DNA from: Balanoglossus misakiensis
Lineage: Eukaryota > Animalia > Hemichordata
Length of the DNA: 64,000 nucleotides
NCBI GenBank assembly: GCA_040954595.2
Contig: CM082577.2
Location: 16,313,903 to 16,377,902, forward strand
Direction: 5' to 3'
A model generated the notes under the pieces. It did no database searches. It was given only the letters and a program-made list of their open reading frames with translations, and was not told the DNA's origin. Position numbers and translations under genes: made by a program. Below are positions 23,986 to 57,551 of the stretch, piece after piece; the first letter of the stretch is position 1, and each line of letters begins with the position of its first letter.

Positions 23986-25917
23986 GCTGAATTGGATCAG
24001 CAAGTCGCATCATACCGGGCAGCAACATTTGCCCAGAACACCAACCGCACTTATAAATCACAATGGCAGTGCTATCTCCGATTTTGCAACTCCATGGGCT
24101 ACCGAGCAATCCCAGTTAAGGGAGCATTTGTTTTTTACAGGGAGGGGGGGGGGGCGGTGGAAATCAGGGGGGGGGGTTTACTTTTACAAAGCAGTTTTTA
24201 GGGGGGGACAAATTTTATAATCAAGGGATTATTATATAGGGACTGAAAGGGGGACTTGAAAACTTTGACGGCTAAATATTTATTTTGAGTCCACAAAAAT
24301 GCAGTTTCGCGTCCTTTATTTTACAAAATTTTATAATGTGGGAGGGGGACACCCCCTCCCACACCCACCCCCTCCATTCATCAACACCTTTCAATCATTG
24401 ACTGGTTTATCTAGTGTCCCAGGTCAGGGGACTTGCCCCCCACCCCATGATAACTTTGAGCGGCGACGTTAATTTGCTTTTGCTGGGTTCATTAAAATGC
24501 AGCTTTGAGCTCTGTATTTTATAAAATTTTCTTACGTGGGAGGGGGACACCCCCTCCCAAACCCACCCCCTTCAATTCTCGGTTTACGATGTCTCCCAAC
24601 ACAGAATACAAATACTTAAAAAATAAAAACAATGTTCAGTAGACATGTACATGAACAGACATAGAGGGACAAAGAGGAGGATGAGCAGGAGGATGAAGAG
24701 GATGACTTGGACGAGGACAGTGAACCAGAAGATGAACATGTAGTGATAGGTGAACTAGGTGATTCAGCGGAAAGTGACTCAGAAAGTGATAGCGGCGACA
24801 TTGAAAATGAACTCTTTCATGTAACAAGATCAGGCAGACAATGCACTACTTGGAAATCAAGGAACTAGGTTTCATGGTTGATTATGTGGTATGTCGAACA
24901 TACACCAATATCTGACAAAGTTTGATAAGTTTAATCCGGTGGATAAACTTCTTTTTTTGGGGGGGGGGTCACATTTTAGAAAAGTAATTTCCAGGGGGGG
25001 GGGGGGTTGCCTTTTACATTTAGTCGGCGACTCAAATTCCACCGCCCCCCCCCCCTCCCTGTAAAAAACGAATGCTCCCTAACAACATTGTTTTAGGCAG
25101 GTATGTTGCCTTCCTTGCAACACGCTTAAAATTTTCTTCCATCAAGCAGTATCTAAATGTTCTGCGTATTTTTCACCTAGAAATGGGTTACAATAATCCG
25201 CTAAGTGAGAATTGGTTCCTAACTTCTCTCTTACTTGGTGTGAAGCGGTGCAAGGGAAGCACAGTGGAGCGCAAGTTGCCGATCACCCCCAGTTTGCTCT
25301 TGCAGATTAGGTCTACCCTTAATTTGGCACAGCTAGATGATGTACTGTTCTGGTCTGTTTGTACATCTGCCTTTTTTGGCTTGCTAAGATTGTCAAACCT
25401 GCTTGTTCCTTCTGCAACTCAGTTCGATGCTGGCAAGCATCTTTGTAGACAGGATATCATTTTTCGTCCTTGGGGTCTACTTCTCTCTATCAGATGGTCT
25501 AAGACCATTCAGTTTCAGCAACGTATTTTGCAGGTACCCCTTCCTTTTGTTCCGGGCCACCCCCTTTGCCCTACAACGGCACTCGTAAGATTTTGGCTTC
25601 TTTCCGCCAGGGCCCCAGCACAGGGTCCAGCCTTCTGTCTCCCTGGGGTCCCTAGTTGCCCATCCTTTACACAGTCCATGTTTCGTTCACGCTTGCGTAG
25701 CGTCTTGTCTTCACTTAGAGTATCTACAGCCACGTTTTCAGGCCATAGTTTTCGTCATGGTGGGGCAACTTGGGCTCTGCAATGTGGCATCCCAGGGGAA
25801 ATTATTAAAGTACTGGGAGACTGGCAGAGCTCTGCCTATCTGTCTTACGTCCAAGATGTTAGCTTAGAACAACGTTTATCTGCTATGTCAACTTTTACCC
25901 TACACCTACCACATTGA
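23986..25917 (+). pseudogene. DIRS/Ngaro-type tyrosine recombinase, interrupted by an insertion at 24120-25079
   Basis: Removing the insertion and one TAA restores the frame ...FAQNTNRTYKSQWQCYLRFC..GYRAIPV-NNIVLGRYVAFL.... The catalytic motifs FFGLLR, SKT, GHSFR.GGAT and GDW.S.AY..Y are present. Confidence 0.9.
24120..25079 (+). mobile_element. PIF/Harbinger-type non-autonomous element (960 bp)
   Basis: TAA TSD at 24117-24119 and 25080-25082. TIRs GGGAGCATT(T/C)GTTTTTTACAGGGAGGGGG...GCGGTGGAA at both ends. Confidence 0.9.
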
Positions 25918-27037: not shown

Positions 27038-28030
27038 CTGTACATAACACGCTTTTAATAGGCCTGGTACTATCAAACCACACGGTTTGTTTATGTTGTT
27101 TCGAGTTTCTTTCGGACACCGGACATTTCATTACTTCCCCTGCAAGTTCCAGTGCTTTAGTCAACCGCTAAATCAACATTTGGAAGACTAACAAGAGAAT
27201 CCTGTAAAACAACTTTCACTTCAATTGAAGACATATTTTCAAAAAAGGTGTTTCTAAAATTTTCAGACCATTTGTAACGCTCTGTTTTTCTACCAACATT
27301 TACATTTTCAACATTTACATCACAATGATAATTCCTGATCCCATTATATAATAGATGACACGACAAAGCCATATGGTCAGATTCGGTGCGAGGCAGTACG
27401 TTGAAATTCTTTACATTGTCAAATAACTTCGTGGACAGGATGACGTAATCAATAAGACTAGCACCGGCATAAGAAATACATGTGAAATGACCATCTTGGT
27501 CACCAGGTGTTCTCCCATTTACAATACGAATGCCCATTCGCTTGCATAAATCAATTAACATTCTACCTGCTGGAGTTATTACTGAATCTTTTGAACAACA
27601 GGGTGTACAAAATGTGTCAGGAATGTAACCCAAATTGTCTAACATCGGAACATGTGCAATTGCGTCATCAGTGATAAAATCGTCCAGGGGCCCCACTCTT
27701 GAGTTGAAATCGCCCAACAAAATAATGTGTTTATCAGAATTGTCTGAAGAAAAGTTAACTAGAAAGTCATCTAACATTTCAATTCTACGGATGGGGTTAT
27801 CTGGTCTAATGTAACAACAACCAATGAGCAAGTCTTTGTCAAAAGAAAATACATCTCTGTGGAATTCAAGAAAAACTCAATTTTCTAATGCACATTCAAC
27901 CCTCTTAACTTTATCAAAACACTTTTTGACGTAAACTGACACACCACCACTTGGTCTGCCTCTCCGAGAACATTCCAAGTTTATAGAGAAAAAATATTGT
28001 GATTCTGATGATATGGGCCTTGGCCTCTTA
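27038..28030 (-). mobile_element. LINE ORF2 APE endonuclease domain, frameshifted
   Basis: RGRPSGGVSVYVK, CYIRP, ILLGDFNSR, GRMLIDLC..NGR, FTC, SLIDY and SDH motifs (ORFs 27877-28116 and 27157-27831). Confidence 0.9.
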
Positions 28031-29211: not shown

Positions 29212-29791
29212 TAATAACACATGATAGCGAGGGCAATATCACGATTTGAAGCCTACACGAGGGATGGTGATCTCTGACCATAATATTGATGATGCCCGAG
29301 CCGCAGGCGAGGGTTTCATCAATATTGTGGTCAGAGATCACCAGCCCGGGGGTAGGCTTCAAATCTTGATGTTTCCCGAGCATCGTGTGTAATTAATTTT
29401 ATTACGCCGAACATTTGAACGTACATACACTGCAGCATAGAAGAACGTAGGGTTGCGTCCATGTCGTACATTGCTGAGAATGTAAAATGTCTCGATCTCC
29501 CAAGAACTATACCTACTTCGAACTCAGATAATTTTGAGGATACTGCGCTGTTGGTTTCGATTTCGGTGTATTTACTGCCTGTTTGCAGTAAAATATCGTC
29601 AAGTTGAACAGGTGTTAAGCCTGTCGCTTTGAAGCCATAGATGCGGGAGTTGGCTGATCGGCGAGGAAGCCATTGAACAACAGTTTGTCAAGCGCAGAAG
29701 TCGTGCACAGAACACCAAAACAACCAAGCGGGCAATATCAACATGCTTTATCACTCTTGCCATGTTTTATCACTTTTTGCTCTATGTCACG
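29212..29791. mobile_element. Left part of a palindrome-bearing (Crypton-like) element that received the Polinton-type insertion; resumes at 43058-43111
   Basis: Hairpin at ~29212-29395 with core cgagccgcaggcgag. Short IR ttttattacgcc (29397-29408) pairs with ggtgtaataaaa (43100-43111) beyond the insertion. Confidence 0.55.
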
Positions 29792-29825
29792 AGTAGTATA
29801 GGTTGGAGCCGTAGCACTCGGATTT

Positions 29826-30335
29826 GGGGAGGAGGATCAGGAGGAGCTGAGGAGGAGCTGAGGAGGAAGAGGAGGAGCTGAGGAGGAAGAGGAGGAGCTG
29901 AGGAGGAAGAGGAGGAGCTGAGGAGGAAGAGGAGGAGCTGAGGAGGAAGAGGAGGAGCTGAGGAGGAAGAGGAGGAGCGGAGGAGCTGAGGAGGAAGAGG
30001 AGGAGCTGAGGAGGAAGAGGAGGAGCTGAGGAGGAGCTGAGGAGGAAGAGGAGGAGCTGAGGAGGAAGAGGAGGAGCTGAGGAGGAGCTGAGGAGGAAGA
30101 GGAGGAGCTGAGGAGGAAGTGGAGGTGATGTTGGGAGGAGGCAGAGGAGGCAGTGGAGGTGATGTTGGGAGGAGGTGATGAGAGGCGAAGGAGGCCTATC
30201 ACCCATGAGGTAGACAACCCTAAATGTTGGGAGGAGGCAGAGGAGGCGATGAGAGGCGGAGGTGTATCACCCCCTAAGGTAAGGAACCCTAAATGTTGGG
30301 AGGAGGCGGAGGCGGAGGAGGCAGAGGAGGCGATG
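29826..30335 (+). repeat. Subterminal purine-rich array (GAGGAGCTGAGGAGGAA)n grading into TGTTGGGAGGAGGC units, left arm
   Basis: Directly visible, and mirrored with different copy number at ~42355-43017. Confidence 0.9.
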
Positions 30336-30364
30336 AGTGGTAGCCCTTTCCCTATTTGAGACTG

Positions 30365-30372
30365 TATAAAAG
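30365..30372 (+). promoter_or_regulatory. TATA box upstream of the ANKRD9-like ORF (mirrored at ~42316-42323)
   Basis: TATAAAAG lies between the GAG array and the ORF. AATAAA at 31530-31535 follows the stop. Confidence 0.5.
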
Positions 30373-30459
30373 GCTAGCCCTGCATGACCATCGTTCTCTT
30401 GGGCGTATTGTGGATATGGTCAATGCGCATTTTTAACGAACATCGTCGAGATCAGAGGA

Positions 30460-31377
30460 TTGCTTTCACGATTCGACCAATTGTCTTTTTATAACTTGCT
30501 AGTCACCGCGATCAGAAAACACAAGCCACCAAAAAGGATAGAGAGAGTTCGGAAACGCGTTGTGTTCGACTGGGAGGAGAAGAGCGACGCCAGGTTTTTC
30601 ACGCCGGCCGATGCGCTGGCACTGGCCGTTGAGTGCAACCATATCGACTACGTGGAATACCTTCTGGAATATCATCTGGCAGAGGCGCTGGATGTATCAA
30701 AACGATGTTGCTCGCATCTCATTCTAGCTGTGAGGTGGGACAGACACCAGATTATGGAGAAGATTCTCTTTTACGCGAGAAAGAAGTTCGACCACTGCAG
30801 GAGTGCCATCGACGAGAAACTGCAGCGTGAGGCGAATACTGCACAGAGCCGAGAGAATTATAGGGCGGAGGCCCCTCCGACATATGATTACAATGGCGAC
30901 TGCTATATCAACTGCAAAGGGTGTCGTTCGTTGGGATTTTCAAGAACGGCCGTCCATGTCGCTTGTGAGTTGGCCCACGTCGAATGCCTGAGAGCCCTGC
31001 TCAAGTACGGAGCGAACCCGGCAACCATGGATCTGGTGGGGAAAACGCCGCTGGAATACTGTCTGTTTCAAACGGGGCCGTCGTCGTCCGATTTGACCTC
31101 TCGGCCGGAACGACTAGCGGAGTGCGTCGAGCTTTTGTTGAGAACACTGCAAAATATTGATGTTTCAATCGTTGAACGGTTGGAAGCTTTAAATACTGGG
31201 GGAGTGAAAGACGGGTTCCTCCAAAACATCGACATATCAAATTCTCCCTGTCTTCTAAAGCACCTTTGCCGCTTCACAATAAGACAATCCATAGGTCTGA
31301 ACGACAGGTTACCTCACGGGATCGGTCAACTACCGTTACCGCTAACTCTAAAACGGTATTTGGCGTTAGATATGTGA
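30460..31377 (+). CDS. ANKRD9: ANKRD9-like ankyrin-repeat / SOCS-box protein (CRL5 substrate adaptor family), left-arm copy
   Basis: FDWEE...FFTPADAL..A...H..Y..YLL, RCC.SHL.LAVR, GC...TAVHVACELA..ECL..LL..GA.P...D..G.TPLE match ANKRD9. C-terminal SOCS box: PCLLKHLCRFTIR...LPLPLTLKRYL. The start is uncertain: the frame is open from 30388 but the first ATG is at 30754. Confidence 0.85.
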   Translation: MLSRFDQLSFYNLLVTAIRKHKPPKRIERVRKRVVFDWEEKSDARFFTPADALALAVECNHIDYVEYLLEYHLAEALDVSKRCCSHLILAVRWDRHQIMEKILFYARKKFDHCRSAIDEKLQREANTAQSRENYRAEAPPTYDYNGDCYINCKGCRSLGFSRTAVHVACELAHVECLRALLKYGANPATMDLVGKTPLEYCLFQTGPSSSDLTSRPERLAECVELLLRTLQNIDVSIVERLEALNTGGVKDGFLQNIDISNSPCLLKHLCRFTIRQSIGLNDRLPHGIGQLPLPLTLKRYLALDM

Positions 31378-31682
31378 ATTTGAATCTGTTTTCAAACTGC
31401 TCCATGCAGTACCTTTGCCAATGTTCATGTTGTACATTATTCAATGTTCAAGTTTGACCAAAGTTATCTGTTTTATAATCTTGTGAATTGTGATATGTTT
31501 GTTTGTTTGTTTGTTTTTTTTTTTTAGAAAATAAAACCAACTGTTCATGGTTGTTGTTTTTTTAATGGAAACTGATCTGGCGTTTTGCTTGTATGTGTGT
31601 GAGTGAATGCATAAGAGTCATGTCATTTAGCGACGAATCAAGTTAAATTTATAGATTTATTGGTTTAAACACTAGAATTTGG

Positions 31683-31793
31683 TGGATCTGGTGGGGAAAA
31701 CGCCGCTGGAATACTGTCTGTTTCAAACGGGGCCGCCGTCGTCCGATTTGACCTCTCGGCCGAAAATGACTAGCGGAGTGCGTCGAGCTTTTG
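31683..31793 (+). repeat. ~110-bp duplicate of ANKRD9-like coding sequence 31028-31138 downstream of the gene (mirrored in the right arm)
   Basis: tggatctggtggggaaaacgccg...gcgtcgagcttttgt is repeated with a few substitutions. Confidence 0.85.
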
Positions 31794-32122
31794 TGTTATG
31801 TTATAATTTATCATTTTAATTATTATTATGATATTGTATGTGATTTCTGAGTAGTTTTGATAAATATATCCAAGTAAATGGAGAGTACTATAGTGTTACT
31901 AATCTTACTCAGTTCGTGGGGTACAATAATGGAAATGTGTTAAAGAGAGAGGGTTCCTTACCTAAGAGGGTGATACACCTACTACATCCTGAAATGCGCC
32001 CTCTACCGACCGAAGTAGCGTTTCATTCGTCCACAACGTACAATCCATACCGTCTGCGTTCGGAACTATGGACTTTTCCGCGAGTGAGCAGTGGGAAACA
32101 ATAATTAATTTAGAACGACAAC

Positions 32123-33247
32123 ATGGAAGACAAGACCAAGAAGATAACCAGGTAAGTAACACATTGTAAATTATTTAGATCAATGCCCAGTAATTTTTAA
32201 TGACACATTATAATTATCCCACCCAAAGCTTTTTTCGCCCGTGGGTAACACATACTATCTGTACTATATATATATATATATATTTTTTTTTTATGGTCCT
32301 CTCTTATTATCATTACATAAGAGTCAACACATCATTTTTGAACAATATTGTACTCCAAGAAATGGACTGCCCTGTGGATGTTATGTCAGTATATTTCATG
32401 TAATTCGTAAGCTATATTTTCTCTCCGTTAAAATGGGCGCGCATTGAATATATATGAGCTTATCGTCTGCGCGTAGCACCTACATCCCACTGTACATGTA
32501 GGCCTATGTACTAATTTTGCGCAGCGTGACTATCAGCGTCACACGCCCTCTCCCCATGATTGTACTGGCGAATAGTGTGGTAACGAGGATAAGCCAAACA
32601 AGGAAGTGTATGCTATCTACACTGAGTTTTAACCAGCGTGCGAAGTTTTATTTTATTTTATTTTTATCGCAACGAACGCAGTGGGCTCACACTCACTGTG
32701 AGTGTGAGTGTATTCTATGTGTACCCAACTGGCTGTGCATTCGTCGCCGCGAATTGCAGTGTACGATTTCCTATCATTTTCACTCATCGATTTTACATAA
32801 ATTCAACTCCCTTTATCACAACAAGTTTGATGAAATACATTTTCATTGAAATATTAATCTCAAAAATTGTCCTGTTGCGATCGTAGAAGATGAGCAGTGA
32901 CGCCCGCGAAATGTTACGGTGATTATGTGACCTGGCCGTCTAGGGGCTTGCAAGCAAATTGCTACATTGTTGCATTGTAATCGCTGGGGTAGCTGTTCTC
33001 CCCAGTCACACGCCACTAATACAGCACACGCGTGTTCAGGCATTGTTATACCATTAGCAATACCTCCACGCCAGCAGTTAGAGCTAATGACAGAATGATG
33101 TGCTATTTCAACAGGTGTTATCGCTCAACGAGGAAAGTGATTTGGGCGCGCAGCATGAAGAACCCAGTGCTCGCACGTCCGGCGAGAGTTTACCACAGTA
33201 AGTTTTTGCTCGATTTTATCGTAATCGGGGGTATCCTGTGTATTTGA

Positions 33248-33300
<53 letters not shown>

Positions 33301-34307
33301 AACAAACAAACGTGGGTATACGCTTAGTCAGCAACTATTTTTTTTTTTTTCTTTTTTTCTTTTTTTTTTTTTTTTTTTTTTCTTTTTAATCTTTGCTAGA
33401 GCAGATATACCATCACAAAGAGTGAACGAGGAAGTGTCAGAGACACAGCCTTTACCGAATCCAAAGAGCGTTATAATAAAACCGTCGGTCGGTCGCTGGT
33501 GATGACTTATTTTTTTTTTTTCAGGATGTAAAGACCTAATCAATTGTCTATTCACGTTGTAATATATTTTTCATCCTCGTAGAATCGACACCACACCAAA
33601 CAATAACACATCGGGTACACAAGAGGATGCATCGTCCTCTCCGAAGCAAATCAGGTAGGTTTAAATAGATTGTGTTTCTATTCACCTTAGGCAGGGTACT
33701 CGTTCTAACATGTATGGTTGTCTATCTGACTGCAAGGTCGTTTGTAAATTTATTCTTGCAATTTTTTTTCTCTCCCAGACTTCCGTCTACACACCTTGCT
33801 GTCACCGAACACCAGCCATCACCAGATTATATACAGGTCCTTCGTGAGACCACTAATCGCCCGGATGTCTATGGTGAGGAGAATGATGAAGGCCGATCAA
33901 CGTGCCCCCACTGTCCCCGCACATTTTCCAGACCAGGTGATTTGTGTCGTCACATCAACACCGTCCATGGGGAAAACCGCCTGTCGTGTGCCAGTTGTAG
34001 TAAGACGTTTACACGCAAAGACAACTTGGCAAGACACCAAAAGAGAGTGCATGACAACAAGAAAACAGGTACCGGTGGTGATGAAAATGACCAGTTTCAG
34101 TGTCCCTGTTGTGACCTTACCTTCACCCGAAAGGACAACATGGCACGGCATTTAAAGGAAATACATCACCGCCTGGATTCCCAATATAAATGCTCAATAT
34201 GTGACATGGTATTTAAAAGAAAAGCACATCATGCCAGTCATTTGAAAATACATAAGAAGCTGTCTTGTACCTGGAGGTATTTAAGGGTGTCGAAAATACA
34301 AGAGTGA
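32123..34307 (+). CDS. Spliced C2H2 zinc-finger protein (4 fingers), predicted 237 aa; exons 32123-32151, 33400-33483, 33583-33654, 33779-34307
   Basis: Fingers CPHC..HINTVH, CASC..HQKRVH, CPCC..HLKEIH and CSIC..HLKIH lie in ORF 33672-34307. The ATG exon ends AG|gtaagt. All three GT-AG introns are phase 2 and keep the frame open; the exon-2 donor gtcggt is weak. Confidence 0.75.
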
Positions 34308-34828
34308 GGGGCCAAAGTGCGGGACACGCACAGTGCTATAAATGGCACTCTGCGGGAATTATCCGACGCGCAGGGAACGGACCTTGCTCTGTTCCCGGCG
34401 TTCCACGGCCTCCACCACTGGAGGCCGTGCAGTGTAACCGGGAACACACAGACCAGTACGCAGATCTAGGAACGGACCGTTTGATTGTTCGGCAGAGCAG
34501 AACAACACGTAACCTAATGTGTACTCAGACAGAGCCAGGCCTGTATGGCTTGTGAACGACGTTGCATAAACGTGTGTCATCCTTGGGTTTACCACTTACG
34601 AATGCAACATCAGGACAGTAGAAAATGTCGATTGTGGGTGGTTGATCGCCCGATCATTTATTATTTTCAACGCCCGAATGTCGTCGGTCGTCGTCAAAAA
34701 CACGATCGACCTCCTCGAAATGCAACATGAAAGTAGAAAATGTCGGTCAAAAACACGATAGACAACCATACATGTTAGAACGAGTACCCCGCCTAAGGTG
34801 AATAGAAACACAATCTATTTAAACCTAC

Positions 34829-36193
34829 CTGATTTGCTTCGGAGAGGACGATGCATCCTCTTGTGTACCCGATGTGTTATTGTTTGGTGTGGTGTCGATT
34901 CTACGAGGATGAAAAATATATTACAACGTGAATAGACAATTGATTAGGTCTTTACATCCTGAAAAAAAAAAAAATAAGTCATCACCAGCGACCGACCGAC
35001 GGTTTTATTATAACGCTCTTTGGATTCGGTAAAGGCTGTGTCTCTGACACTTCCTCGTTCACTCTTTGTGATGGTATATCTGCTCTAGCAAAGATTAAAA
35101 AGAAAAAAAAAGAAAAAAAAGAAAAAAAAAAAATAGTTGCTGACTAAGCGTATACCCACGTTTGTTTGTTGTTGTTTGTTTGTTTGTTTGTTTTTTTTTT
35201 TTTTTGTGTGTGTGTGTGTGTGTGTGTGTTTTCATCAAATACACAGGATACCCCCGATTACGATAAAATCGAGCAAAAACTTACTGTGGTAAACTCTCGC
35301 CGGATGTGCGAGCACTGGGTTCTTCATGCTGCGCGCCCAAATCACTTTCCTCGTTGAGCGATAACACCTGTTGAAATAGCACATCATTCTGTCATTAGCT
35401 CTAACTGCTGGCGTGGAGGTATTGCTAATGGTATAACAATGCCTGAACACGCGTGTGCTGTATTAGTGGCGTGTGACTGGGGAGAACAGCTACCCCAGCG
35501 ATTACAATGCAACAATGTAGCAATTTGCTTGCAAGCCCCTAGACGGCCAGGTCACATAATCACCGTAACATTTCGCGGGCGTCACTGCTCATCTTCTACG
35601 ATCGCAACAGGACAATTTTTGAGATTAATATTTCAATGAAAATGTATTTCATCAAACTTGTTGTGATAAAGGGAGTTGAATTTATGTAAAATCGATGAGT
35701 GAAAATGATAGGAAATCGTACACTGCAATTCGCGGCGACGAATGCACAGCCAGTTGGGTACACATAGAATACACTCACACTCACAGTGAGTGTGAGCCCA
35801 CTGCGTTCGTTGCGATAAAAATAAAATAAAATAAAACTTCGCACGCTGGTTAAAACTCAGTGTAGATAGCATACACTTCCTTGTTTGGCTTATCCTCGTT
35901 ACCACACTATTCGCCAGTACAATCATGGGGAGAGGGCGTGTGACGCTGATAGTCACGCTGCGCAAAATTAGTACATAGGCCTACATGTACAGTGGGATGT
36001 ACGTGCTACGCGCAGACGATAAGCTCATATATATTCAATGCGCGCCCATTTTAACGGAGAGAAAATATAGCTTACGAATTACATGAAATATACTGACATA
36101 ACATCCACAGGGCAGTCCATTTCTTGGAGTACAATATTGTTCAAAAATGATGTGTTGACTCTTATGTAATGATAATAAGAGAGGACCATAAAA

Positions 36194-36224
<31 letters not shown>

Positions 36225-36368
36225 TAGTACAGATAGTATGTGTTACCCACGGGTGAAAAAAGCTTTGGGTGGGATAATTATAATGTGTCATTAAAAATTA
36301 CTGGGCATTGATCTAAATAATTTACAATGTGTTACTTACCTGGTTATCTTCTTGGTCTTGTCTTCCAT
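34829..36368 (-). other. Mirror copy of zinc-finger gene exons 1-3 (36368-36340, 35084-35001, 34900-34829), without the finger exon
   Basis: Reverse complement of the left-arm exons with the splice sites retained. Confidence 0.6.
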
Positions 36369-38120
36369 GTTGTCGTTCTAAATTAATTATTGTTTCCCAC
36401 TGCTCACTCGCGGAAAAGTCCATAGTTCCGAACGCAGACGGTATGGATTGTACGTTGTGGACGAATGAAACGCTACTTCGGTCGCACTGCATGAAAACCC
36501 TATAATACAGACAAATTCACACAAATCAAGTTGCCAGTATTTTAGGCTAATACACGCTAATTCTTGTGAGTCCACATGAATATAGGCTTGCTGAATACAA
36601 GCAATGGATTTTTGTCTGTATTCATCAGTATAAGCACTATTCTAAATCCATGCATAATACTGAAAAATACAGATTGTACAAGTCTTTAATACATTCTGTA
36701 TTAAGAATAGATGGACGATGTATTCACAAAGACCGGTTGGAAATGGTACTGCAAAATACAATCTGTATTCGCAGAGATTTGAGTTCTATTTGCATATCAT
36801 TACTAGAATGACCCGACCAGTGTGAAGGTCAACCTGATTCAGTCCACAGTCCCTCTTTGGTAGATCTAAAATAGTCCATTGATCCTTGTGATCGAAACAA
36901 GCAACATACACAATACAATTTAATCCATCTATAATATCAGTAGGAAAAACCATGGATGCAATCTTTCCTTATACCTCCATGGAACAACGGAGTAAACTTA
37001 GTTCTTGCCGAAGTGTTAAGACGATTTTAATAACCGTAAATTCAAAGCTTGCAAGTTACGTATATATGAAGGCTTTATACTGCCAGCACTTAATTGCGTC
37101 AATTTGGCCATGCACATAAAAAACCTTGTGCAGGAAAAGACTATACGCTGTAGCCTATTCGCCGGTCTGAAGCCGGCCGGCGACTGTAGCTGCTCAATCA
37201 TTGTTATTTCTTTAGCGCCTGTGCCTACAAGATTGCGAGGTAAAATTAGCGTGTCCGGCTTTGCCTAGCCTGCGCGGCTTCCCCACTGCGGAGGACCAGC
37301 AGCCTAGTCACGCGGCGAGACGGACAGACCCTGTGATCTGATATAGAAAAAATGGGCAGTCCGGCGCACCACGTTACAAATCTCGAGCGCATGTGCCGTG
37401 GCCGGACTTTCTCGCCATTCTACATCTAACAATCCAAATATGATCGTTATATCTCAGAAATGTGCTGACTCTGAGCCATACGCTACAATAACCTGTGCGT
37501 TCAACAACAGTTACTAGAAAAGACGGTTGGGAAACTATCTGGCTGTCCATTGTAAGATGCTCGACTTGGTAAACACTGAGAGTACTTTTCTAGTTAACAC
37601 CTCCTTCACACCTTCCGAACAATATAGAGTTTCCCAACAGTCTTTTCTAGTAACGCAGTGTGAACCATGCATGGAGGTACGGAACGAAACGGAACACAAC
37701 ACTGTTCAACAACACTGGTGATTCATTTTACTTTCTGTAAAAATGTTTGGCCTGGTGACACTTTCTCTGGGGAGCACGTGCAGGGCAACAAGAGAGAATT
37801 GATCTCGACAGTGGGGAATTCGATCGCCACTATAAGCTCTACCAAAACGAAGTTTCAGGACGTCTGTACCATTGTTACAATTAAGTGCCCCAGGCGTCTA
37901 TATGAGTTATCTGGTGGGCCAATAAACTACCGATCAAGGTGAACAAAAGACAGTAATGTTTGTGAAAATGACACGACTGACCGCCAGTGAAATGATTGAC
38001 AGTCTATACCGTGTGCTGAAGATGCGGTTGACACCCACAGTCAGCGTTAATCAAGGCCGGATCGGCCACACATTTGTCAGACATCGTGCAGGTGCTCCCC
38101 GCACCTGGCCCGGTCATGTA

Positions 38121-38212
38121 TAGCCCTGCGTACGGGTCTGTGTGTTACCGGCGTTACCATAGTGGTAGAGGCCGTGTAACGCCGGGAACACACAGACCTG
38201 TACGCATAGCTA
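38121..38212. mobile_element. Hairpin MITE of the TAGCCCTGCGTAC family (degenerate)
   Basis: Same TIR as 46052-46454. Another decayed copy lies at ~34388-34468. Confidence 0.65.
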
Positions 38213-39484
38213 TGCCGATGACTGCCCTTAGATCCACGAAAGACTGCCTGATCGAGATATGCCCTGGAGACAGCAGGAGCAAAAAAGGGAGAAAAGGCCA
38301 CAATGCGCTAATTCAAGCCAAATCCTAACAGATCAAACTTAATTTAAGCGCAATCACCCTAAAAATAATTTGACATCCATTTTGAGCTATTGGGGGCACT
38401 CCTGTGGGGGGGGGGGGGTCGCCTGATCTCAGCTTGCGTAGGTTTAAGAACATACCATTCAGTAAAAGGTGTGACACACTATATACAGACTACAAAGCTG
38501 CCAGCATTTTGCAAAGCAATACAAGTTTCGGCGTTTTTAAAAGAGTTACAAATTGATTATTTAGAGTAGCATAGGGGGACCTGTACAGCGCCACCATAGG
38601 GTATATATCTCGAATTTGAAAGGTTAAAGTTCAGCAGTGCAGCCGAGCTGATTGAACTACAGTGACAACAGTGCGCAGCAGAGAGCAAGAACAGAGATCC
38701 ACTCCAGTCATATTTTTTATAGAGTTTATAGTACAGAAGATATGAGCTATCGATCAAGATCGCGAGTTGCTAGTCGATTAACAGCTGACCAAGTTGCACA
38801 TGACATTGTGCGGTCAACTCCAATTCGTCCGTCCAGATGTCCATGCAGCAGGCAATTACTATGTTTTAAATCGTTGACAATAATCTGCACATTCATAAAT
38901 CAGTCTGTTTGAACTGTAGCAGTAACTTCGAATCCAATGGCCGAAAGTGTGTTCTGTAGGCAATAAAAGCGTACTGCCTTTGCTTTTAGACATATGATGA
39001 ACATCACTTAGTCATTTGTGTGTTTTTGAAGGGAGTTGTTTGGTTAGCGGATGCATGATGGAAAATTGCCATGATTATGTTCAACTAACAAATGTAATGA
39101 GAGTCACTCATTCTTCCATGCTACCCCAAAATACTCATTGTTCTGCAGGAAATGACACATGTGCTTGATAAACTAACTTTAACACATACACAAGGCATAA
39201 ACAAACTGCACACAATAAGCTTGCACACTTCATCACTATTGTTTGTGACATCTCTATTGTTCATGACACCTGGAGATAAGCATGTCTTTGTCATGTTTTG
39301 CATTGTAGTGAAGAGAACAATATAAAACTGGAGAATTGAAGCCTGTGTAAAGGTTGTCATTCAAGAGGCATCTTTCAGCAGGCAGGTTCACCATAATACG
39401 AAATGCCATTCAAAGAAAAATTTGACTTGATATGTTAGATTTTTAAAAAAATATTAATACAGTTCATTTTTTTTTTATTTTCAG

Positions 39485-39777
39485 ACATTAAAAAGGAGAG
39501 AAAGGGTCGTCAATGCAGATGAGAAAGAATTCTGGGCAAGGGTAAAGGCGAAACTAATGTCGGACGAGGAAGTTGGTGAATCAGAGGACATAGTTTTAGT
39601 CAAGTCGCCGGCCTGGAGAGCTGCACCCCTTAATGAACTGATCAAACACTTGACAGGAGACTAGAGGAAAAGAGAATTTTAGGCAGACTAGTCAAAAAAA
39701 GGCAACGCTCAGCAACTCCATCATCCCGGTCCCGTCCAATCAATGTTTATTCAGAAAACTATGTTGAACCTCAGTAA
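39485..39777 (+). pseudogene. C14orf93-like exon inside the CACTG element, one frameshift
   Basis: After a T-rich acceptor: ...FWARVKAKLMSDEEVGESEDIVLVKSPAWRAAPLNELIKH/DRRL, matching the MSDEE...P-x-WR-x3-L-x2-L...LD motif. Confidence 0.55.
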
Positions 39778-41310
39778 CATTTAAATTGACTAAAATTCCC
39801 TTTTCCTCTAGTCTCCTGCCGAAGCTTGAAATTGTCACCATTATTTCCAATCTCAGGATATCTTTTTATTCTTTATCTTACATTTCCTGCCATTTTTATA
39901 ATATTGCAATATGTAAAAACAGAAAAAAATTTGTGGAGTTAATCTCTTATTTAAGTTTGATTTTAACAGCTATCTTTTTTATTGTAATTTATTTATGAAT
40001 AATAATAAAAAGTGAATAATGAAAAATTTACCCTCTTCATTATGTTTTATTGTTGGCATGAATGTACTAGTAGCATGAGAGGATGTGTGGATGGGAGATG
40101 TCTTGTCTTGTGTCACAGCTTTGGTCAGTCTGTATTCCCATATGACCCATGATATATTTGAAGACGTTTATACAATACTGATAAAATTCAACCAGTTAAT
40201 TTTTCTGCCTGTAGCCTGACATCAGGATTGATTGTGCTGAAAGATTTACTGGAATGCTATCAATTACATGGGGTAATTCTGCAAATAAACAGTATGCCCT
40301 TTATGAAGAAAATCGCAGGATAAAGTTAATGAAGAAGCAAAGATCAAAAGTCATTAATTTGATGTAAAATCAGTCATGAATCAATATGGAACCCATTACC
40401 TGCAATGAAAAAATCACACGAATTCATGTCTGTATTTTTCCTAAAGCACAGATGAATACAGACAAGTCCACATCTTTATTCTTTGAAAAATACTGATGAA
40501 TTCTTGCAGTGTATTAGCTGGTATACAGAATGGTGCTTATACTTGTCTATCCATTATGAATATATCTGTATTCACGGTGAATACTTTCTATATTAACAAT
40601 GGACTAGACTGTATTCAACTAAAATACAGGCGATTGTCCATGCTTATATTGTAAGTATTATTAGGTTTTCATGCAGTGTCGGTAGAGGGCGCATTTCAGG
40701 ATGTAGTAGGTGTATCACCCCCTTAGGTAAGGAACCCTCTCTCTTTAACACATTTCCATTATTGTACCCCACGAACTGAGTAAGATTAGTAACACTATAG
40801 TACTCTCCATTTACTTGGATATATTTATCAAAACTACTCAGAAATCACATACAATATCATAATAATAATTAAAATGATAAATTATAACATAACACAAAAG
40901 CTCGACGCACTCCGCTAGTCATTTTCGGCCGAGAGGTCAAATCGGACGACGGCGGCCCCGTTTGAAACAGACAGTATTCCAGCGGCGTTTTCCCCACCAG
41001 ATCCACCAAATTCTAGTGTTTAAACCAATAAATCTATAAATTTAACTTGATTCGTCGCTAAATGACATGACTCTTATGCATTCACTCACACACATACAAG
41101 CAAAACGCCAGATCAGTTTCCATTAAAAAAACAACAACCATGAACAGTTGGTTTTATTTTCTAAAAAAAACAAACAAACAAACAAACAAACATATCACAA
41201 TTCACAAGATTATAAAACAGATAACTTTGGTCAAACTTGAACATTGAATAATGTACAACATGAACATTGGCAAAGGTACTGCATGGAGCAGTTTGAAAAC
41301 AGATTCAAAT

Positions 41311-42228
41311 TCACATATCTAACGCCAAATACCGTTTTAGAGTTAGCGGTAACGGTAGTTGACCGATCCCGTGAGGTAACCTGTCGTTCAGACCTATGGA
41401 TTGTCTTATTGTGAAGCGGCAAAGGTGCTTTAGAAGACAGGGAGAATTTGATATGTCGATGTTTTGGAGGAACCCGTCTTTCACTCCCCCAGTATTTAAA
41501 GCTTCCAACCGTTCAACGATTGAAACATCAATATTTTGCAGTGTTCTCAACAAAAGCTCGACGCACTCCGCTAGTCGTTCCGGCCGAGAGGTCAAATCGG
41601 ACGACGACGGCCCCGTTTGAAACAGACAGTATTCCAGCGGCGTTTTCCCCACCAGATCCATGGTTGCCGGGTTCGCTCCGTACTTGAGCAGGGCTCTCAG
41701 GCATTCGACGTGGGCCAACTCACAAGCGACATGGACGGCCGTTCTTGAAAATCCCAACGAACGACACCCTTTGCAGTTGATATAGCAGTCGCCATTGTAA
41801 TCATATGTCGGAGGGGCCTCCGCCCTATAATTCTCTCGGCTCTGTGCAGTATTCGCCTCACGCTGCAGTTTCTCGTCGATGGCACTCCTGCAGTGGTCGA
41901 ACTTCTTTCTCGCGTAAAAGAGAATCTTCTCCATAATCTGGTGTCTGTCCCACCTCACAGCTAGAATGAGATGCGAGCAACATCGTTTTGATACATCCAG
42001 CGCCTCTGCCAGATGATATTCCAGAAGGTATTCCACGTAGTCGATATGGTTGCACTCAACGGCCAGTGCCAGCGCATCGGCCGGCGTGAAAAACCTGGCG
42101 TCGCTCTTCTCCTCCCAGTCGAACACAACGCGTTTCCGAACTCTCTCTATCCTTTTTGGTGGCTTGTGTTTTCTGATCGCGGTGACTAGCAAGTTATAAA
42201 AAGACAATTGGTCGAATCGTGAAAGCAA
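41311..42228 (-). CDS. ANKRD9: ANKRD9-like ankyrin-repeat / SOCS-box protein, right-arm copy
   Basis: The translation is identical to 30460-31377. Confidence 0.85.
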   Translation of the reverse strand: MLSRFDQLSFYNLLVTAIRKHKPPKRIERVRKRVVFDWEEKSDARFFTPADALALAVECNHIDYVEYLLEYHLAEALDVSKRCCSHLILAVRWDRHQIMEKILFYARKKFDHCRSAIDEKLQREANTAQSRENYRAEAPPTYDYNGDCYINCKGCRSLGFSRTAVHVACELAHVECLRALLKYGANPATMDLVGKTPLEYCLFQTGPSSSDLTSRPERLAECVELLLRTLQNIDVSIVERLEALNTGGVKDGFLQNIDISNSPCLLKHLCRFTIRQSIGLNDRLPHGIGQLPLPLTLKRYLALDM

Positions 42229-42354
42229 TCCTCTGATCTCGACGATGTTCGTTAAAAATGCGCATTGACCATATCCACAATACGCCCAAGAGAACGATGG
42301 TCATGCAGGGCTAGCCTTTTATACAGTCTCAAATAGGGAAAGGGCTACCACTCA

Positions 42355-43017
42355 TCGCCTCCTCTGCCTCCTCCGCCTCCGCCTCCTCCCAACATTTAGG
42401 GTTCCTTACCTTAGGGGGTGATACACCTCCGCCTCTCATCGCCTCCTCTGCCTCCTCCCAACATTTAGGGTTGTCTACCTCATGGGTGATAGGCCTCCTT
42501 CGCCTCTCATCACCTCCTCCCAACATCACCTCCACTGCCTCCTCTGCCTCCTCCCAACATCACCTCCACTGCCTCCTCTGCCTCCTCCCAACATCACCTC
42601 CACTTCCTCCTCAGCTCCTCCTCAGCTCCTCCTCTTCCTCCTCAGCTCCTCCTCAGCTCCTCAGCTCCTCCTCTTCCTCCTCTTCCTCCTCAGCTCCTCC
42701 TCAGCTCCTCCTCAGCTCCTCCTCAGCTCCTCCTCTTCCTCCTCAGCTCCTCCTCAGCTCCTCCTCAGCTCCTCCTCTTCCTCCTCAGCTCCTCCTCTTC
42801 CTCCTCAGCTCCTCAGCTCCTCCTCTTCCTCCTCAGCTCCTCCTCAGCTCCTCAGCTCCTCCTCTTCCTCCTCAGCTCCTCCTCAACTCCTCCTCTTCCT
42901 CCTCAGCTCCTCCTCTTCCTCCTCTTCCTCCTCAGCTCCTCCTCAGCTCCTCAGCTCCTCCTCTTCCTCCTCAGCTCCTCCTCAGCTCCTCCTCAGCTCC
43001 TCCTGATCCTCCTCCCC
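42355..43017 (-). repeat. Subterminal purine-rich array, right arm (longer than the left)
   Basis: (CTCCTCAG/CTCCTCTT)n array, with one extra CCAACATCACCTCCACT unit relative to the left arm. Confidence 0.9.
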
Positions 43018-43691
43018 AAATCCGAGTGCTACGGCTCCAACCTATACTACTGTCACGTGAGCGCGTCTCAGCCAATCACGAATACGACATAATACGTAAG
43101 GTGTAATAAAATATCTTAATGTGTATCTGTACGTCATATATCTCATCAAGGTGAACGTGTGAACTATAACATCCAACACATTTTCTTAAGAATTTCATCT
43201 CGAGAGGTGATCGACATTTTTTATTCAAAGCAGGAGCCTACATACAAACAATGGAAATTGTGTTTTACAGGATAATCGTTCAGATACTGAACAATAGGAA
43301 GACGCAGTGGCGTTCAATACCTGGACACTTGCACTACAGATGTGCATTGTCCGGCTTACAGCACACCAAAATATCTGCTGTAAAGCCCGGCCAACCACGA
43401 ACAACATTCCTGCAGTCAAATTACGATTGGAACGATCAACGAGTCGATCAATGGTCGAGAGTGGCCGCGCGCAGAGCATTTGCATAGAGCTTCACCAGGT
43501 GCTTCACAAGTTCACACGTCACTTTATTCGTGTCACTGCATGCACGGTGATATTTGCATATTTCTTGTGTTAGGGGTCCGTGTGTCAGTGTAGTCCATTT
43601 CTTAAAAAGCATATACCATTTCGTTTTGCTACTTTCCCTTACTTAGAACAATCACAAATTATTGTACACAGTTACTGAGTACAAAACATGA

Positions 43692-45201: not shown

Positions 45202-47326
45202 AATATTTATGACATACACGTAAACGCATTATATACAAAGTAATGCAAATCATAATGATAATTACATCAGCTGAAAGACTTCCCCAGAATGCATCAGTGG
45301 CTTGTTGACAACAATTTGTTCGACATGACTCATAATTGATGCCGGGCTCTTGAACTTGGCCGCACCATATCAGACGATTCGCCACATACCCAGGTAATGT
45401 ATCTTCGAGTGTTTGGTATTGACGGTTCAACGATGAATACGCATGCGCGATGTGATTGGTTCCAGACCAAAATAGTGTCTGCAATAACAATGATAGTTTT
45501 CATTCGAAATCCTGTGAGCTCACTGGATCACATGGCAATATATGATGTGTATAAGTTTACTTTACGTTTTGACTATGGGCGTTAATTTTGTTAAATGTAC
45601 AGAATTGCCCGTTTTATATCTCGGTTGACGTCACACCTCAATGCGGGTTTAATTTTGACTACTAAAGAAATATGTTTGATTAGCAAGATGACAAAAAAAC
45701 CACATATATCAAACCAAAAGCGTCACATCCCTTGGACTTTTGTGATAAGGGGGGGGGGGCACTGTTGCGCATGCGTATACGAACCCCGTTTACTTGAACG
45801 GACTGTAAAGCTGCTTCTCTGAAAGGTTTGTAGAGTTCGCTGGTGACGTCACATGGATCACGATATACAAATCCCTGCTGAAACAGCTCCCACAACTCTG
45901 TGCAGTTACTGACATTACAGAAATAGAAAGTAAACAAAGAAACAAACATAAGCCAGATCAGACAATGAGAAAATCGTCATTTCATATAAAGTGCATTCAA
46001 ACAGATTCACAGACTGCGGTGGCGCAAAGTGATATAAGCATAGTGGCTGTGTAACCCTGCGTACAGGTCTGTGTGTTCCCGGCGTTACACGGCCTCCACC
46101 ACAGCCCTGCAAGGCGCCATAGAAAAAACTGATGCTTCTGCGGTCCGGATCCGGACCGCAGCTTTTTCGGAAATTCGAATTTATCGAGGGAAAAATCATT
46201 TCCCTGTCTACTTCTGCCTCCTAACCGACTCCAAATATGATGCGTTTAACTTGTCCTAACGTCCGAACCACTCGCGTTTGATTTATTTTTGTGTGTTTAC
46301 ATGTTGAGATCGCCATAATTAAATATAAGGCTTACAGCGAGTTTATCTCCATGGTTATGGGTAAACATAACAGTTTTTTTTCTATGGCGCCTTGCAGGGC
46401 TGTGGGTGGAGGCCGTGTAACGCCGGGAACAACACAGACCTGTACGCAGGGCTAGGTGGCTGTGCAATGGGGAAGTCAGAGTGAATCAGATTCCAAAGGT
46501 TATCCAAAGTAGGCTAGAGTGACAATGTAGTGTTTGGTCCAGTGAATGGATTTAGGTCACGCACCATACTTGTCAGTGCCAGTGAATTCTTTTAGTGCAA
46601 ACTTATGACCTGATCGTTATTAAATTGCAACCATATGGCGTATATTACTAGTACTATTCTACCCATGTGTATAGATCAACAAAACAAAACACTGTGTGGT
46701 TTGGTTGAGGTTTGATTGTAGTTTAGGTCGAACATTATTGACACGGCTGTTCATAAGAATAGGCTGGTGACTCGAAAGTGAAACTTTGCGGAACTGTGAA
46801 ATATAACCGTGTTGGAGAAAAGGCTCAAATCAAAATGGCAGAAGAGTTCAAGTCGGTTCAGATCCTCCACATTATTTGATTGATTGTTCGATCGGTTAAT
46901 TGATTGATCGATGAATCGATCGAGTGATTTGAGTGAATGAGTGAGTGGGTGCGTTAAGATCCATTGCTTTCAAAATAAAATAATCATTATATTAATTTCA
47001 ATGATATATTCTTTAAGGCTAACATTCAACAGAGTTCAGCCCGGGCTGTAACTCGCAAGGGAAAAAAGAGTTTACCTGGTATCACTGTCGGATAAGTGGT
47101 ATTCCCAGCACCGCCCCAAGAAAATTTCTTTCAGATGCGGCGTTGTTCCACTGGCTGGACAGTATTCGTCTCCGAGTCGTCTAAAGTTGCTTCTCATAGA
47201 CCGCGAGAAACGACCAGACTCATGAGACTGGTACCCTAGCAGGTGAGCCCATGAAGGGGCAAGTGAGAGGGAAAGGACGCCCAGAGTGAAAAACACGACG
47301 CTGCAGAAGTTTCCATTCGGCTTCAT
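43692..47326 (-). CDS. ADP-ribosyl cyclase / cADPR hydrolase (CD38/BST1 family) gene 1, 333 aa; exons 47326-47076, 45908-45785, 45478-45266, 44959-44880, 44479-44387, 44154-44068, 43845-43692
   Basis: Signal peptide; GTTPHLKEIFLGRC; TLFWSGT; TLEDTL; FWGSLS; MLNGS; catalytic E in YFAAYELP; ESCG..SI; C-terminal C-x8-C and a hydrophobic GPI-like tail. All introns are GT-AG and phase-consistent. Confidence 0.93.
45139..45201. repeat. (CAT)n microsatellite in a cyclase gene 1 intron
   Basis: Directly visible. Confidence 0.95.
46052..46454. mobile_element. MITE with ~80-bp TIRs and 9-10-bp TSD (AcademH-like ends TAR...CTA)
   Basis: TA(A/G)CCCTGCGTACAGGTCTGTGT... TIRs, with flanks (a/g)gtggctgtg on both sides. 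Confidence 0.8.
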
Positions 47327-55935: not shown

Positions 55936-57551
55936 TTAGGGCACAAGCCAAGCAGGCTTGTGCCCTATTGGTATTACTGGGGTTTTTCATCTTTTTTTTT
56001 TTCTTGTGTAGTTTTTTTGCTCAGGTAGATCTTGAAAACGGCTGAACCTACAAATCTCAAACTTGGCACAATGGTGCAGGCCTATGAGAGCTGGTGCAGT
56101 ATCCCTGTGAATGTTTAATTAGTCATGTGGCTTGATGACCATATATGGGGAAAATTTTTAAAATGGGCCTAATTTGCATATGAATGGAGATATCGAAATT
56201 CTTTTAGCAACTTTTGTGGACCATGTGATCAGTGTCCTACATGCCAAATATCAAGGCCGTGGGCCAAGTCTATTTTGAGAAGAAGACTTGTAAATATTAG
56301 TAGTTTTTCATATTTTTGGACCCAGCCATGGGCCTATACTTTCTATAGTTAAGCTATGACGCCATGTACACGTCTGTGCAATGGTCCTGTACAGTGACTG
56401 CCTACTGGCCCGTGAGCAGAATGGGACCACATTAAAAGGCAAAATTTCGGGCTCACCTGTAACACCTGCTAAACTCATTAATTATGTGCATACCTAATTC
56501 CGGGCTAACTAATAGGGCTAGAGGTTTCGTTCTTTTTGGTCATGGACCAGTATGGGGTTAAAAAAATTTGCCCAAATTCTGGGTGACCTCAGGTGACCTT
56601 TGACCTACTTTCCTATATCTCCGCATCCAGAGCAGTTACAGACTTGGCGTTTGGAGGGTTGGGACTAAAATAGAAAAGCCAAAATTGGGGGTCACCTGTG
56701 ACACCTGCTTATCTCATTAATTATGTGCATACCTAATTCCAGTCTAACCGATAGGGCTAGAGGTTTTGTTCTTGTGGGACATGGACCAGTATGAGGTTAA
56801 AAAAATTTGCCCAAATTTTGGGTGACCTCAGGTGACCTTTGACCTACTGTCCTATATCTCCGCATCAATAGCAGGTACAGACTTGGCGTTTGGAGGGTTG
56901 GGACTATAATTGAAAAGCCAAATTTGGGGGTCACCTGTGACACCTGCTTATCTCATTAATTATGTGCATACCTAATTCCAGGCTAACCAATAGGGTTAGA
57001 GGTTTGATTTTTGTTGAACATGGACCAGTATAGGCTCAAAATTTCTTGCCCAAATTTTGCATGACCTCAGGTGACCTTTGACCTAATTTACCATATCTTG
57101 GCAACCAGAGCAGGCAAAGACTTGGCGTTTGGAGGGTTGGGACTAAAATTGAAAAGCCAAAATTTGGGGTCACCAGTGACACCTGCATATCTCATTAATT
57201 ATGTGCATACCTAATTCCAGGCTAACCAATAGGGCTAGAGGTTTTGTTCTTGTGGGACATGGATCAGTATGGGGTCAAAAATTTTGCCCAAATTTTGGGT
57301 GACCTCAGGTGACCTTTGACCTACTTTGCTATATCTTGGCATCCAGAACAGGTACAGAATTTGTGTTTGGATGGATCGAACTATTAATGGAGTCTTACAC
57401 TTTACATCATTAATTATGTGCATATCTAATTTCAGGCAAACCAATAGGGCTAGAGGTCAGGTTTCTTTTTGCCCAATTTTTGGGTGACCACATATGACCT
57501 TTGACCTTCGGCTTAAGCTTGTGCCCGTCATCGCTGCTTGCAGCTATATTT
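55936..57551 (+). mobile_element. Helentron-associated (HINE/DINE-like) element with a central 239-bp tandem array
   Basis: 5' agggcacaagc...gcttgtgccct hairpin, 3' subTIR gcttgtgccc, terminal stem-loop gctgcttgcagc followed by tatattt. Repeat units start near 56452, 56691, 56930 and 57169. Confidence 0.7.

Follow-up and report, generated by a model that had tools for sequence, protein, structure and literature searches.

A Polinton-type element of Balanoglossus misakiensis with a four-finger C2H2 gene predicted to read the element's own subterminal repeats

The window, by which we mean the whole 64-kb stretch of DNA that was analysed, contains an element at positions 29792-43051 that starts with AGTAGT and finishes with ACTACT (43046-43051); its features are collected in Table 1. 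The available text of PMC8097293 gives Maverick/Polinton elements ends of the form 5'-(AGT)2//(ACT)2-3' or (AG)3//(CT)3 and a perfect 6-bp target duplication, and here the (AGT)2//(ACT)2 end motif, a perfect 6-bp target duplication and terminal inverted repeats were all found. In this copy the arms are 3.9 kb long and hold whole genes, as compared to terminal repeats of 46-1,447 bp in intact vertebrate Polinton/Maverick elements (same source, available text); their identity of about 98% is the figure after setting aside the 4.2-kb insertion at 36485-40678, which is separate and no part of the Polinton-type element. An intron-bearing cargo adjoining the left end is shared with nematode Mavericks, as these are described in the accessible part of bioRxiv 10.1101/2022.07.12.499685. 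Whereas Polinton/Maverick elements have core enzyme and capsid genes, none was found in the frames scanned from the present copy: a Pfam scan of the finger exon, the ankyrin frame and 40 further frames of at least 60 amino acids, picked from 85 listed, gave no family of the protein-primed polymerase, integrase, ATPase, protease or capsid. Because none of these families was found in the scanned frames, we class the element as a non-autonomous Polinton/Maverick derivative, short of full membership, and its mobilisation would require polymerase and integrase supplied by an autonomous partner. The insertion holds an exon-like frame at about 39484-39664 with a weak match to DUF4616 (E 1.5e-4, under the family cut-off), and a search of the ESM Atlas with this exon gave no usable match.

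Table 1. Features of the element, with coordinates in the window
Feature	Position	Strand	Remarks
Target-site duplication, left, 6 bp GTCACG	29786..29791	+	Identical hexamer at 43052-43057
Target-site duplication, right, 6 bp GTCACG	43052..43057	+	
Left arm, opening with the Polinton/Maverick motif AGTAGT	29792..33726	+	Identity with the inverted right arm about 98%
GAG-rich minisatellite, units GAGGAGGAGCT / GAGGAGGAA	29830..30125	+	Partial three-finger (F4-F3-F2) matches
Four predicted four-finger sites, left arm	30132..30308	+	30132, 30166, 30228 with one mismatch; 30297 exact
Second 30-bp motif, unrelated, between the sites	30261..30290	+	Inverted repeat at 31950-31979, upstream of the zinc-finger start
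TATA box candidate, TATAAAA	30365..30371	+	Mirror at 42317-42323; sequence only
Intronless ankyrin + SOCS-box (ANKRD9-like) frame	30481..31377	+	Mirror at 41311-42207 (-)
Predicted exons 1-4 of the zinc-finger gene	32068-32151, 33115-33197, 33400-33483, 33583-33654	+	Splice signals and phases
Unique core, about 1 kb between the arms	33727-34756		Holds the finger exon
Last exon, four C2H2 fingers in 2+2 layout (predicted)	33779..34307	+	Translation and Pfam
F1 recognition helix (-1 to +6), RPGDLCR	33930-33950	+	Translation
F2 recognition helix, RKDNLAR	34014-34034	+	Translation
F3 recognition helix, RKDNMAR	34128-34148	+	Translation
F4 recognition helix, RKAHHAS	34218-34238	+	Translation
Right arm, inverted copy of the left arm, closing with ACTACT	34757..43051	-	Split by the 4.2-kb insertion
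CACT...AGTG insertion	36485..40678		3-bp duplication TCG; CACTA/EnSpm-like ends
Five mirror sites, right arm	42380..42590	-	42391 exact; 42460, 42522, 42556, 42590 with one mismatch

An earlier note on this DNA had treated 33779-34307 as a unit of its own; the fingers do lie there, but the stretch is the predicted last exon of what appears to be a spliced five-exon gene rather than a stand-alone open reading frame. Exons 1-4 are phase-consistent with it (the donor of exon 3 is weak), and the N-terminal exons are predicted to encode 142 residues in which D/E outnumber K/R by 28 to 9 and hydrophobic residues are few. The same four exons are duplicated in the right arm, without the finger exon. 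Pfam zf-C2H2 matches four stretches of the last exon (E 1.8e-19), zinc-finger families being the only ones matched, and the four helices re-read from the translation are those that the note had given. The fingers follow the classical tandem array (C-x2-C-x12-H-x3-5-H with F and a hydrophobic core) and are of the HX4H type with non-TGEKP linkers; at the usual Leu position there is Met in F3 and His in F4. The F1-F2 linker (6 residues, GENRLS) and the F3-F4 linker (7-8 residues) are both near the canonical TGEKP type, while the linker between F2 and F3, which had been described as long and non-canonical, measures 16 residues. The frame stops at 34307 and no enzyme domain lies downstream in the present copy, so that the fingers are not fused to an ATPase or polymerase here.

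The ankyrin-SOCS frame is 57% identical over its length to an ANKRD9-like protein of Ptychodera flava, with a Saccoglossus protein next at 39%, which suggests an acorn-worm host and a cargo that would be a captured host gene; in the present copy the frame is without an ATG at the homologous start position. The two arms contain 5 and 6 GGGAGG boxes, which presumably could serve host Sp/KLF-type factors too. A stretch of about 110 bp in the ankyrin coding sequence (31028-31138) has a duplicate of 96-98% identity at 31683-31794, 3' of the gene in both arms.

In the standard C2H2 code, fingers bind antiparallel and helices with R-1/N3/R6, R-1/D3/R6 and R-1/H3 read GAG, GCG and NGG, respectively; the four helices are thereby predicted to spell NGG GAG GAG GCG. 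This prediction, made in the earlier note, agrees with an engineered module table (GCG=RSDDLVR, TGG=RSDHLTT, AAG=RKDNLKN, GCA=QSGDLRR; PMC7317221) and with tool predictions that assign RSDNLVR to GAG (PMC5260015), as given in the available text of both sources. The predicted preferred word is NGGGAGGAGGCG, and all 11 specified bases are matched at 30297 and 42391, where TGGGAGGAGGCG occurs exactly (30297-30308 on the plus strand, and on the minus strand from 42391). The exact site and the 11/12 matches at 30132, 30166 and 30228 that had been reported were all recovered, and the mirroring claimed for the right arm was also found, with five sites there rather than four. Measured inward from the termini, the sites fall at distances of 340-505 bp on the left and 461-660 bp on the right, and they are copies of 34-bp and 69-bp tandem units, hence not independent. 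TATAAAA at 30365 follows the end of the exact site by 57 bp, in keeping with the earlier placement of the sites just upstream of that box.

All mismatches in these sites fall in the F1 triplet, which is then GCA or GTG. F1 is the sole GNG finger with Gly in place of Asp at +2, and GCA and GTG are both CpG-type transitions of GCG; we infer that the mismatches are explicable either by tolerance or by methylation decay. Nearer the ends, the claim that the repeats reach the terminus holds for the GAGGAG minisatellite, which extends to about 38 bp from it, but not for the GAGGCG half-sites, which stop about 390 bp short. The pattern N[AG]GGAGGAG, an F4-F3-F2 reading in which His3 tolerates A besides G, occurs 20 times in the left and 29 times in the right subterminal region, twice in the middle 12 kb of the element and not at all in the 50.7 kb outside it. 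Spaced half-sites are also present, with gaps of 6, 9 and 10 bp, and the 16-residue F2-F3 linker does not force a contiguous reading; a long linker dividing two half-sites has an engineered precedent (PMC7317221, available text). The 30-bp motif between the sites lies outside the finger code and may have a second factor as its user; it is a GGTG-N3-CACC palindrome with mirrors at 42398-42427 and 40709-40738 and a degenerate third copy near 30193-30222.

A scan against the background, which the earlier note had called for, was made within the 64-kb window: nine matches with at most one mismatch were found as compared to 0.22 expected, all of them subterminal and none outside the element, and none of 100 shuffles reached nine. 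The exact site arises from the natural antiparallel finger order only (1 of 12 distinct orders), although two further orders do equally well once one mismatch is allowed (four sites each), and NAGGAGGAGGAG then finds 35 sites in the GAG tract, far above the predicted word. When natural fingers were translated by a simplified code, none of the 462 four-finger runs specifying at least 10 bases (1982 runs in all, from the best 150 representative proteins) matched the subterminal zone or the left arm. With all seven arginine-specified Gs fixed and the four middle bases varied, 7 of 256 words (2.7%) occur in the 574-bp left subterminal zone; outside blocks (n = 87) hold a mean of 0.34 of the 256 words, and one of them also holds 7. 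The exact site appeared in 0.9%, 2.4% and 11.4% of 1000 shuffles of the subterminal zone that kept 2-mers, 3-mers and 4-mers, respectively, and in 0%, 4.8% and 23.4% of those of the 210-bp site zone. Most of the signal therefore comes from the GAG-rich tract and not from the exact word. The caution attached to the original claim, that the region is of low complexity, applies: the sites are copies of one another, duplicated in tandem within that tract, and an exact match by chance has a frequency of 2-11% when local composition is kept.

One could thus envision a coincidence, in which a C2H2 gene that was captured or is drifting, and whose arginine-rich helices are of a common kind, happens to lie beside a GAG minisatellite whose readers, if any, are host Sp/KLF-type factors. 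The tandem origin of the sites in a low-complexity tract agrees with such an account, as do the long F2-F3 linker, which weakens a contiguous 12-bp reading, and the conditional chance of 2.7% in a case picked from very many windows scanned. However, a coincidence demands a GAG array at precisely these ends together with four fingers in the matching order, the natural controls gave 0 of 462, and R-1/N3/R6 and R-1/D3/R6 fingers are rare (17 and 16 of 4470 natural fingers, respectively), and we regard this explanation as possible but rather doubtful.

The frequency of the helix in mobile DNA has a bearing on the same question. In viral contigs we found 22 stretches with an RKDN(L/M)xRH helix, surrounded by only 0-8 GAGGAG per 5.7-20 kb and by no array, so that this stock helix does occur in viral genes without GAGGAG arrays, as a coincidence would have it; the proteins are one- to three-finger products of giant-virus genes and not relatives of the present gene. 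Since the helix is common in giant-virus genes, a null drawn from host proteins understates its frequency in mobile DNA. Among giant-virus genes with one such finger, a repeated 9-mer near the start holds GAG at 7 of the 12 loci with repeats (7 of all 21), as compared to 5 of 40 matching control windows with repeats (5 of all 270; Fisher P 0.003), a test to which we attach little importance, as several of the loci are relatives of one another and AG microsatellites account for two. Three related giant-virus two-finger genes with the helix RKDNLIR (L002:4443-5375, L004:3493-4428 and L016:5829-6728) have a repeated GAGGGAAAA near the start.

Two public DNA runs from one sample (X1 and X2) contain the stretch. 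Contig depth in X1 is about 270-300 along the arm as compared to about 27 for the rarest variants, which points to a multi-copy family, depth being no copy number. Because the arm-core boundary at 33726 is spanned in each run by a single contig without break or branch (33512-33826 and 33396-33898), and because contig depth over the ankyrin gene is much like that over the exons of the finger gene, most copies in the sample are likely to be without the giant palindrome of the present copy, and the four finger-less exons of the right arm are likely to stem from a recent inverted duplication. Most copies in X1 and X2 skip 31904-31961, by which part of the inner copy of the 30-bp motif is gone, and the majority of family copies skip 34394-34582 in the core. 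The core also holds a short hairpin-like repeat (34336-34483) that recurs at 38120-38213, 46048-46102 and 46405-46454 and has a contig depth of about 10,000 in X1.

Diverged copies of the finger gene in contigs of the same species are, as judged from their sequence, under purifying selection. Among the differences listed for positions 34010-34265 of the finger exon, in intermediate-depth contigs grouped by depth, 12 are synonymous (49 sites) and 10 are replacements (207 sites), giving a pN/pS of 0.20 (binomial P 2e-4), a raw value that ignores transition bias and excludes differences at contig ends. None of the differences listed falls at the base-contact positions -1, 3 and 6; F2 is changed at +1, F4 at +2 and +5, and the His3 codon of F4 carries a silent change. 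This retention of contact residues in diverged copies, among the differences listed, is a further point against coincidence. Across 33894-33997 no difference is seen in X2, so the copies are mosaic, and the unchanged F1 and F3 helices may have recent exchange as their source. A third contig family of low depth (3 synonymous and 2 replacement differences, P 0.08) is too small for use.

Taken with these controls, the proposed self-contained protein/site pair stands as far as the code match, the comparisons with other finger orders, natural fingers and background, and the kept contact residues go, while the binding itself is a prediction; we consider it likely that the protein really binds the terminal repeats. 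Among the roles that had been offered for the pair, a promoter switch fits the anatomy best and an origin of replication is the least likely, and we set the latter aside since the full sites are 340-660 bp away from the termini. We did the same with autoregulation of the finger gene, as the scan of the 64-kb window gave no site at one mismatch or fewer near the gene's own predicted start. We tentatively prefer, at somewhat less than even chances, an element-encoded regulator, probably an activator, that would bind the repeats of both arms and control the TATA promoter before the ankyrin-SOCS cargo, because the layout resembles a transcription factor with its upstream sites: the protein combines an acidic tail with four fingers, and the tandem sites stop 57 bp short of a TATA box. 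Counting against this reading are the missing ATG of the cargo frame in the present copy and the absence of sites near the start of the finger gene. Under such circumstances, the acidic-tailed four-finger protein would bind the TGGGAGGAGG(C/T)(G/A) repeats in both terminal arms, F4-F3 reading NGG GAG and F2-F1 reading GAG GCG, with the 16-residue linker giving the two half-readings some play; F4-F3-F2 would load more weakly onto the GAGGAG minisatellite, and the acidic N-terminus would activate transcription at the TATA promoter.

Dense sites beside a TATA box could block as readily as activate, and the protein could instead be a repressor or competitor on the repeats, a captured host-derived silencer or a self-limiting brake; an intron-bearing gene of this kind resembles the host-derived cargo of Mavericks (bioRxiv 10.1101/2022.07.12.499685, accessible part). 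We judge this to be very improbable: Pfam gives only zinc-finger families in the last exon, the upstream exons (outside the Pfam scan) are short acidic peptides, and no close host homologue was found in the protein searches.

Alternatively, the protein could serve packaging or integration as an adaptor that recognises the ends. It might then be what remains of a longer zinc-finger-ATPase or zinc-finger-polymerase gene, namely its DNA-reading leader, and the array would be a packaging or assembly signal. The code evidence serves an adaptor as well as a regulator, the sites lie at both ends with many partial sites toward the termini, and precedents exist in the available text of two sources: the packaging domain of adenovirus has seven A repeats to which IVa2 and L4-22K bind (PMC4346872), and TnpA has multiple binding sites on the inner side of the TIRs (PMC9921582). 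Furthermore, two contigs diverge from the window just past 34265, where finger 4 ends, with a higher-depth repeat starting near 34274, and the C-terminal tail therefore differs between copies. However, contigs with the window-type tail reach the same depth as those over the rest of the gene, the 40 further element frames hold no ATPase, polymerase, integrase or capsid domain, and an acidic tail with fingers and sites before a TATA box is the layout of a transcription factor; we therefore consider an adaptor unlikely, and regulation of the cargo promoter our preferred, if tentative, reading.

Several known systems resemble parts of this arrangement. The Spm/En element also encodes a DNA-binding protein, TnpA, with many sites just inside both ends (PMC9921582 and PMC4219821, available text), but it is a CACTA cut-and-paste element, whereas the present one has a classical C2H2 array as its predicted reader and Polinton-type ends; the Spm/En type being defined by CACTA ends, a 3-bp duplication and TnpA/TnpD proteins, the outer element, with AGTAGT ends and a 6-bp duplication, does not belong to it, and only the unrelated inner insertion has CACT ends. 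The adenovirus A repeats are likewise repeated short sites in a related virus lineage, and their virus-encoded binders also act in transcription (PMC4346872, available text); the adenovirus packaging domain uses different proteins, while here the predicted sites are at both ends and no ATPase was found in the copy. The Ziftr gene of adomaviruses and some adintoviruses is, as here, a stand-alone gene resembling zinc-finger transcriptional regulators (bioRxiv 10.1101/2024.03.25.586562); the accessible part of that source reports only remote CTCF-like similarity and gives no target site. Mavirus also carries a zinc-finger gene, MV04, of unknown function (PMC3671162, available text). The helices R-1/D3/R6, R-1/N3/R6 and R-1/H3 are those of the Zif268/EGR1 code; unlike Zif268/EGR1, the present array has HX4H fingers, non-TGEKP linkers and a 2+2 layout, and it shows no orthology to a named factor, the best identities being 27-41%.

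The principle of an element protein acting on its own subterminal repeats is already known, as in TnpA. The available text of a giant-transposon review (PMC6431247) contains nothing on Polinton proteins reading their own ends, and in the literature covered, mainly open-access main texts, we found no description of a Polinton protein that reads the element's own subterminal repeats or binds its ends, and no account of Polinton/Maverick end recognition or gene switching. With one exact 12-base word at both ends, the question can be put to the test by one small domain of the protein and a probe of 200 bp. Should binding be confirmed, this would be a first cis/trans pair for Polinton-type elements and would give a function to adintovirus zinc-finger genes, and it would suggest why a non-autonomous copy keeps its finger gene under purifying selection. 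One could go further and suppose, with considerable doubt, that in animal Polintons C2H2 helices and the elements' own subterminal words co-evolve, marking each family's ends for transcription and for packaging or integration, and that the present copy has kept the reader, the address and a ubiquitin-ligase cargo but lost every enzyme.

Searches for relatives were of little help in placing the gene. The finger exon had no relative at E<=1e-10 among 20 candidate proteins of similar length, and among 335 longer proteins it gave only 9 generic C2H2 matches (27-34% identity) and no close host homologue; the best 150 from a 50%-representative library were long poly-finger proteins (27-41% identity), and the 25 of these scanned with Pfam contained no Polinton domain. 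The ESM Atlas returned only generic C2H2 clusters under its recognition threshold. Viral contigs gave no match to the finger exon or the ankyrin protein, and both the two-finger pattern and the double-site pattern were absent from them, while metagenome contigs gave one generic host finger only. A 20-base match to the terminus in viral contigs fell in a phage-like contig of no relation to the element, and we ascribe it to chance. None of these searches gave a relative that combines the fingers with the ends.

Outside the element, the window holds a frame for a rhodopsin-family 7TM receptor (58512-59489, minus strand; E 7e-21), a weak tyrosine-recombinase-like frame (25072-25917, plus strand; E 0.0035), a retroelement endonuclease fragment (27157-27777, minus strand; E 3e-6) and a tandem repeat at 56434-57371 with about 3.9 copies of a 239-bp unit.
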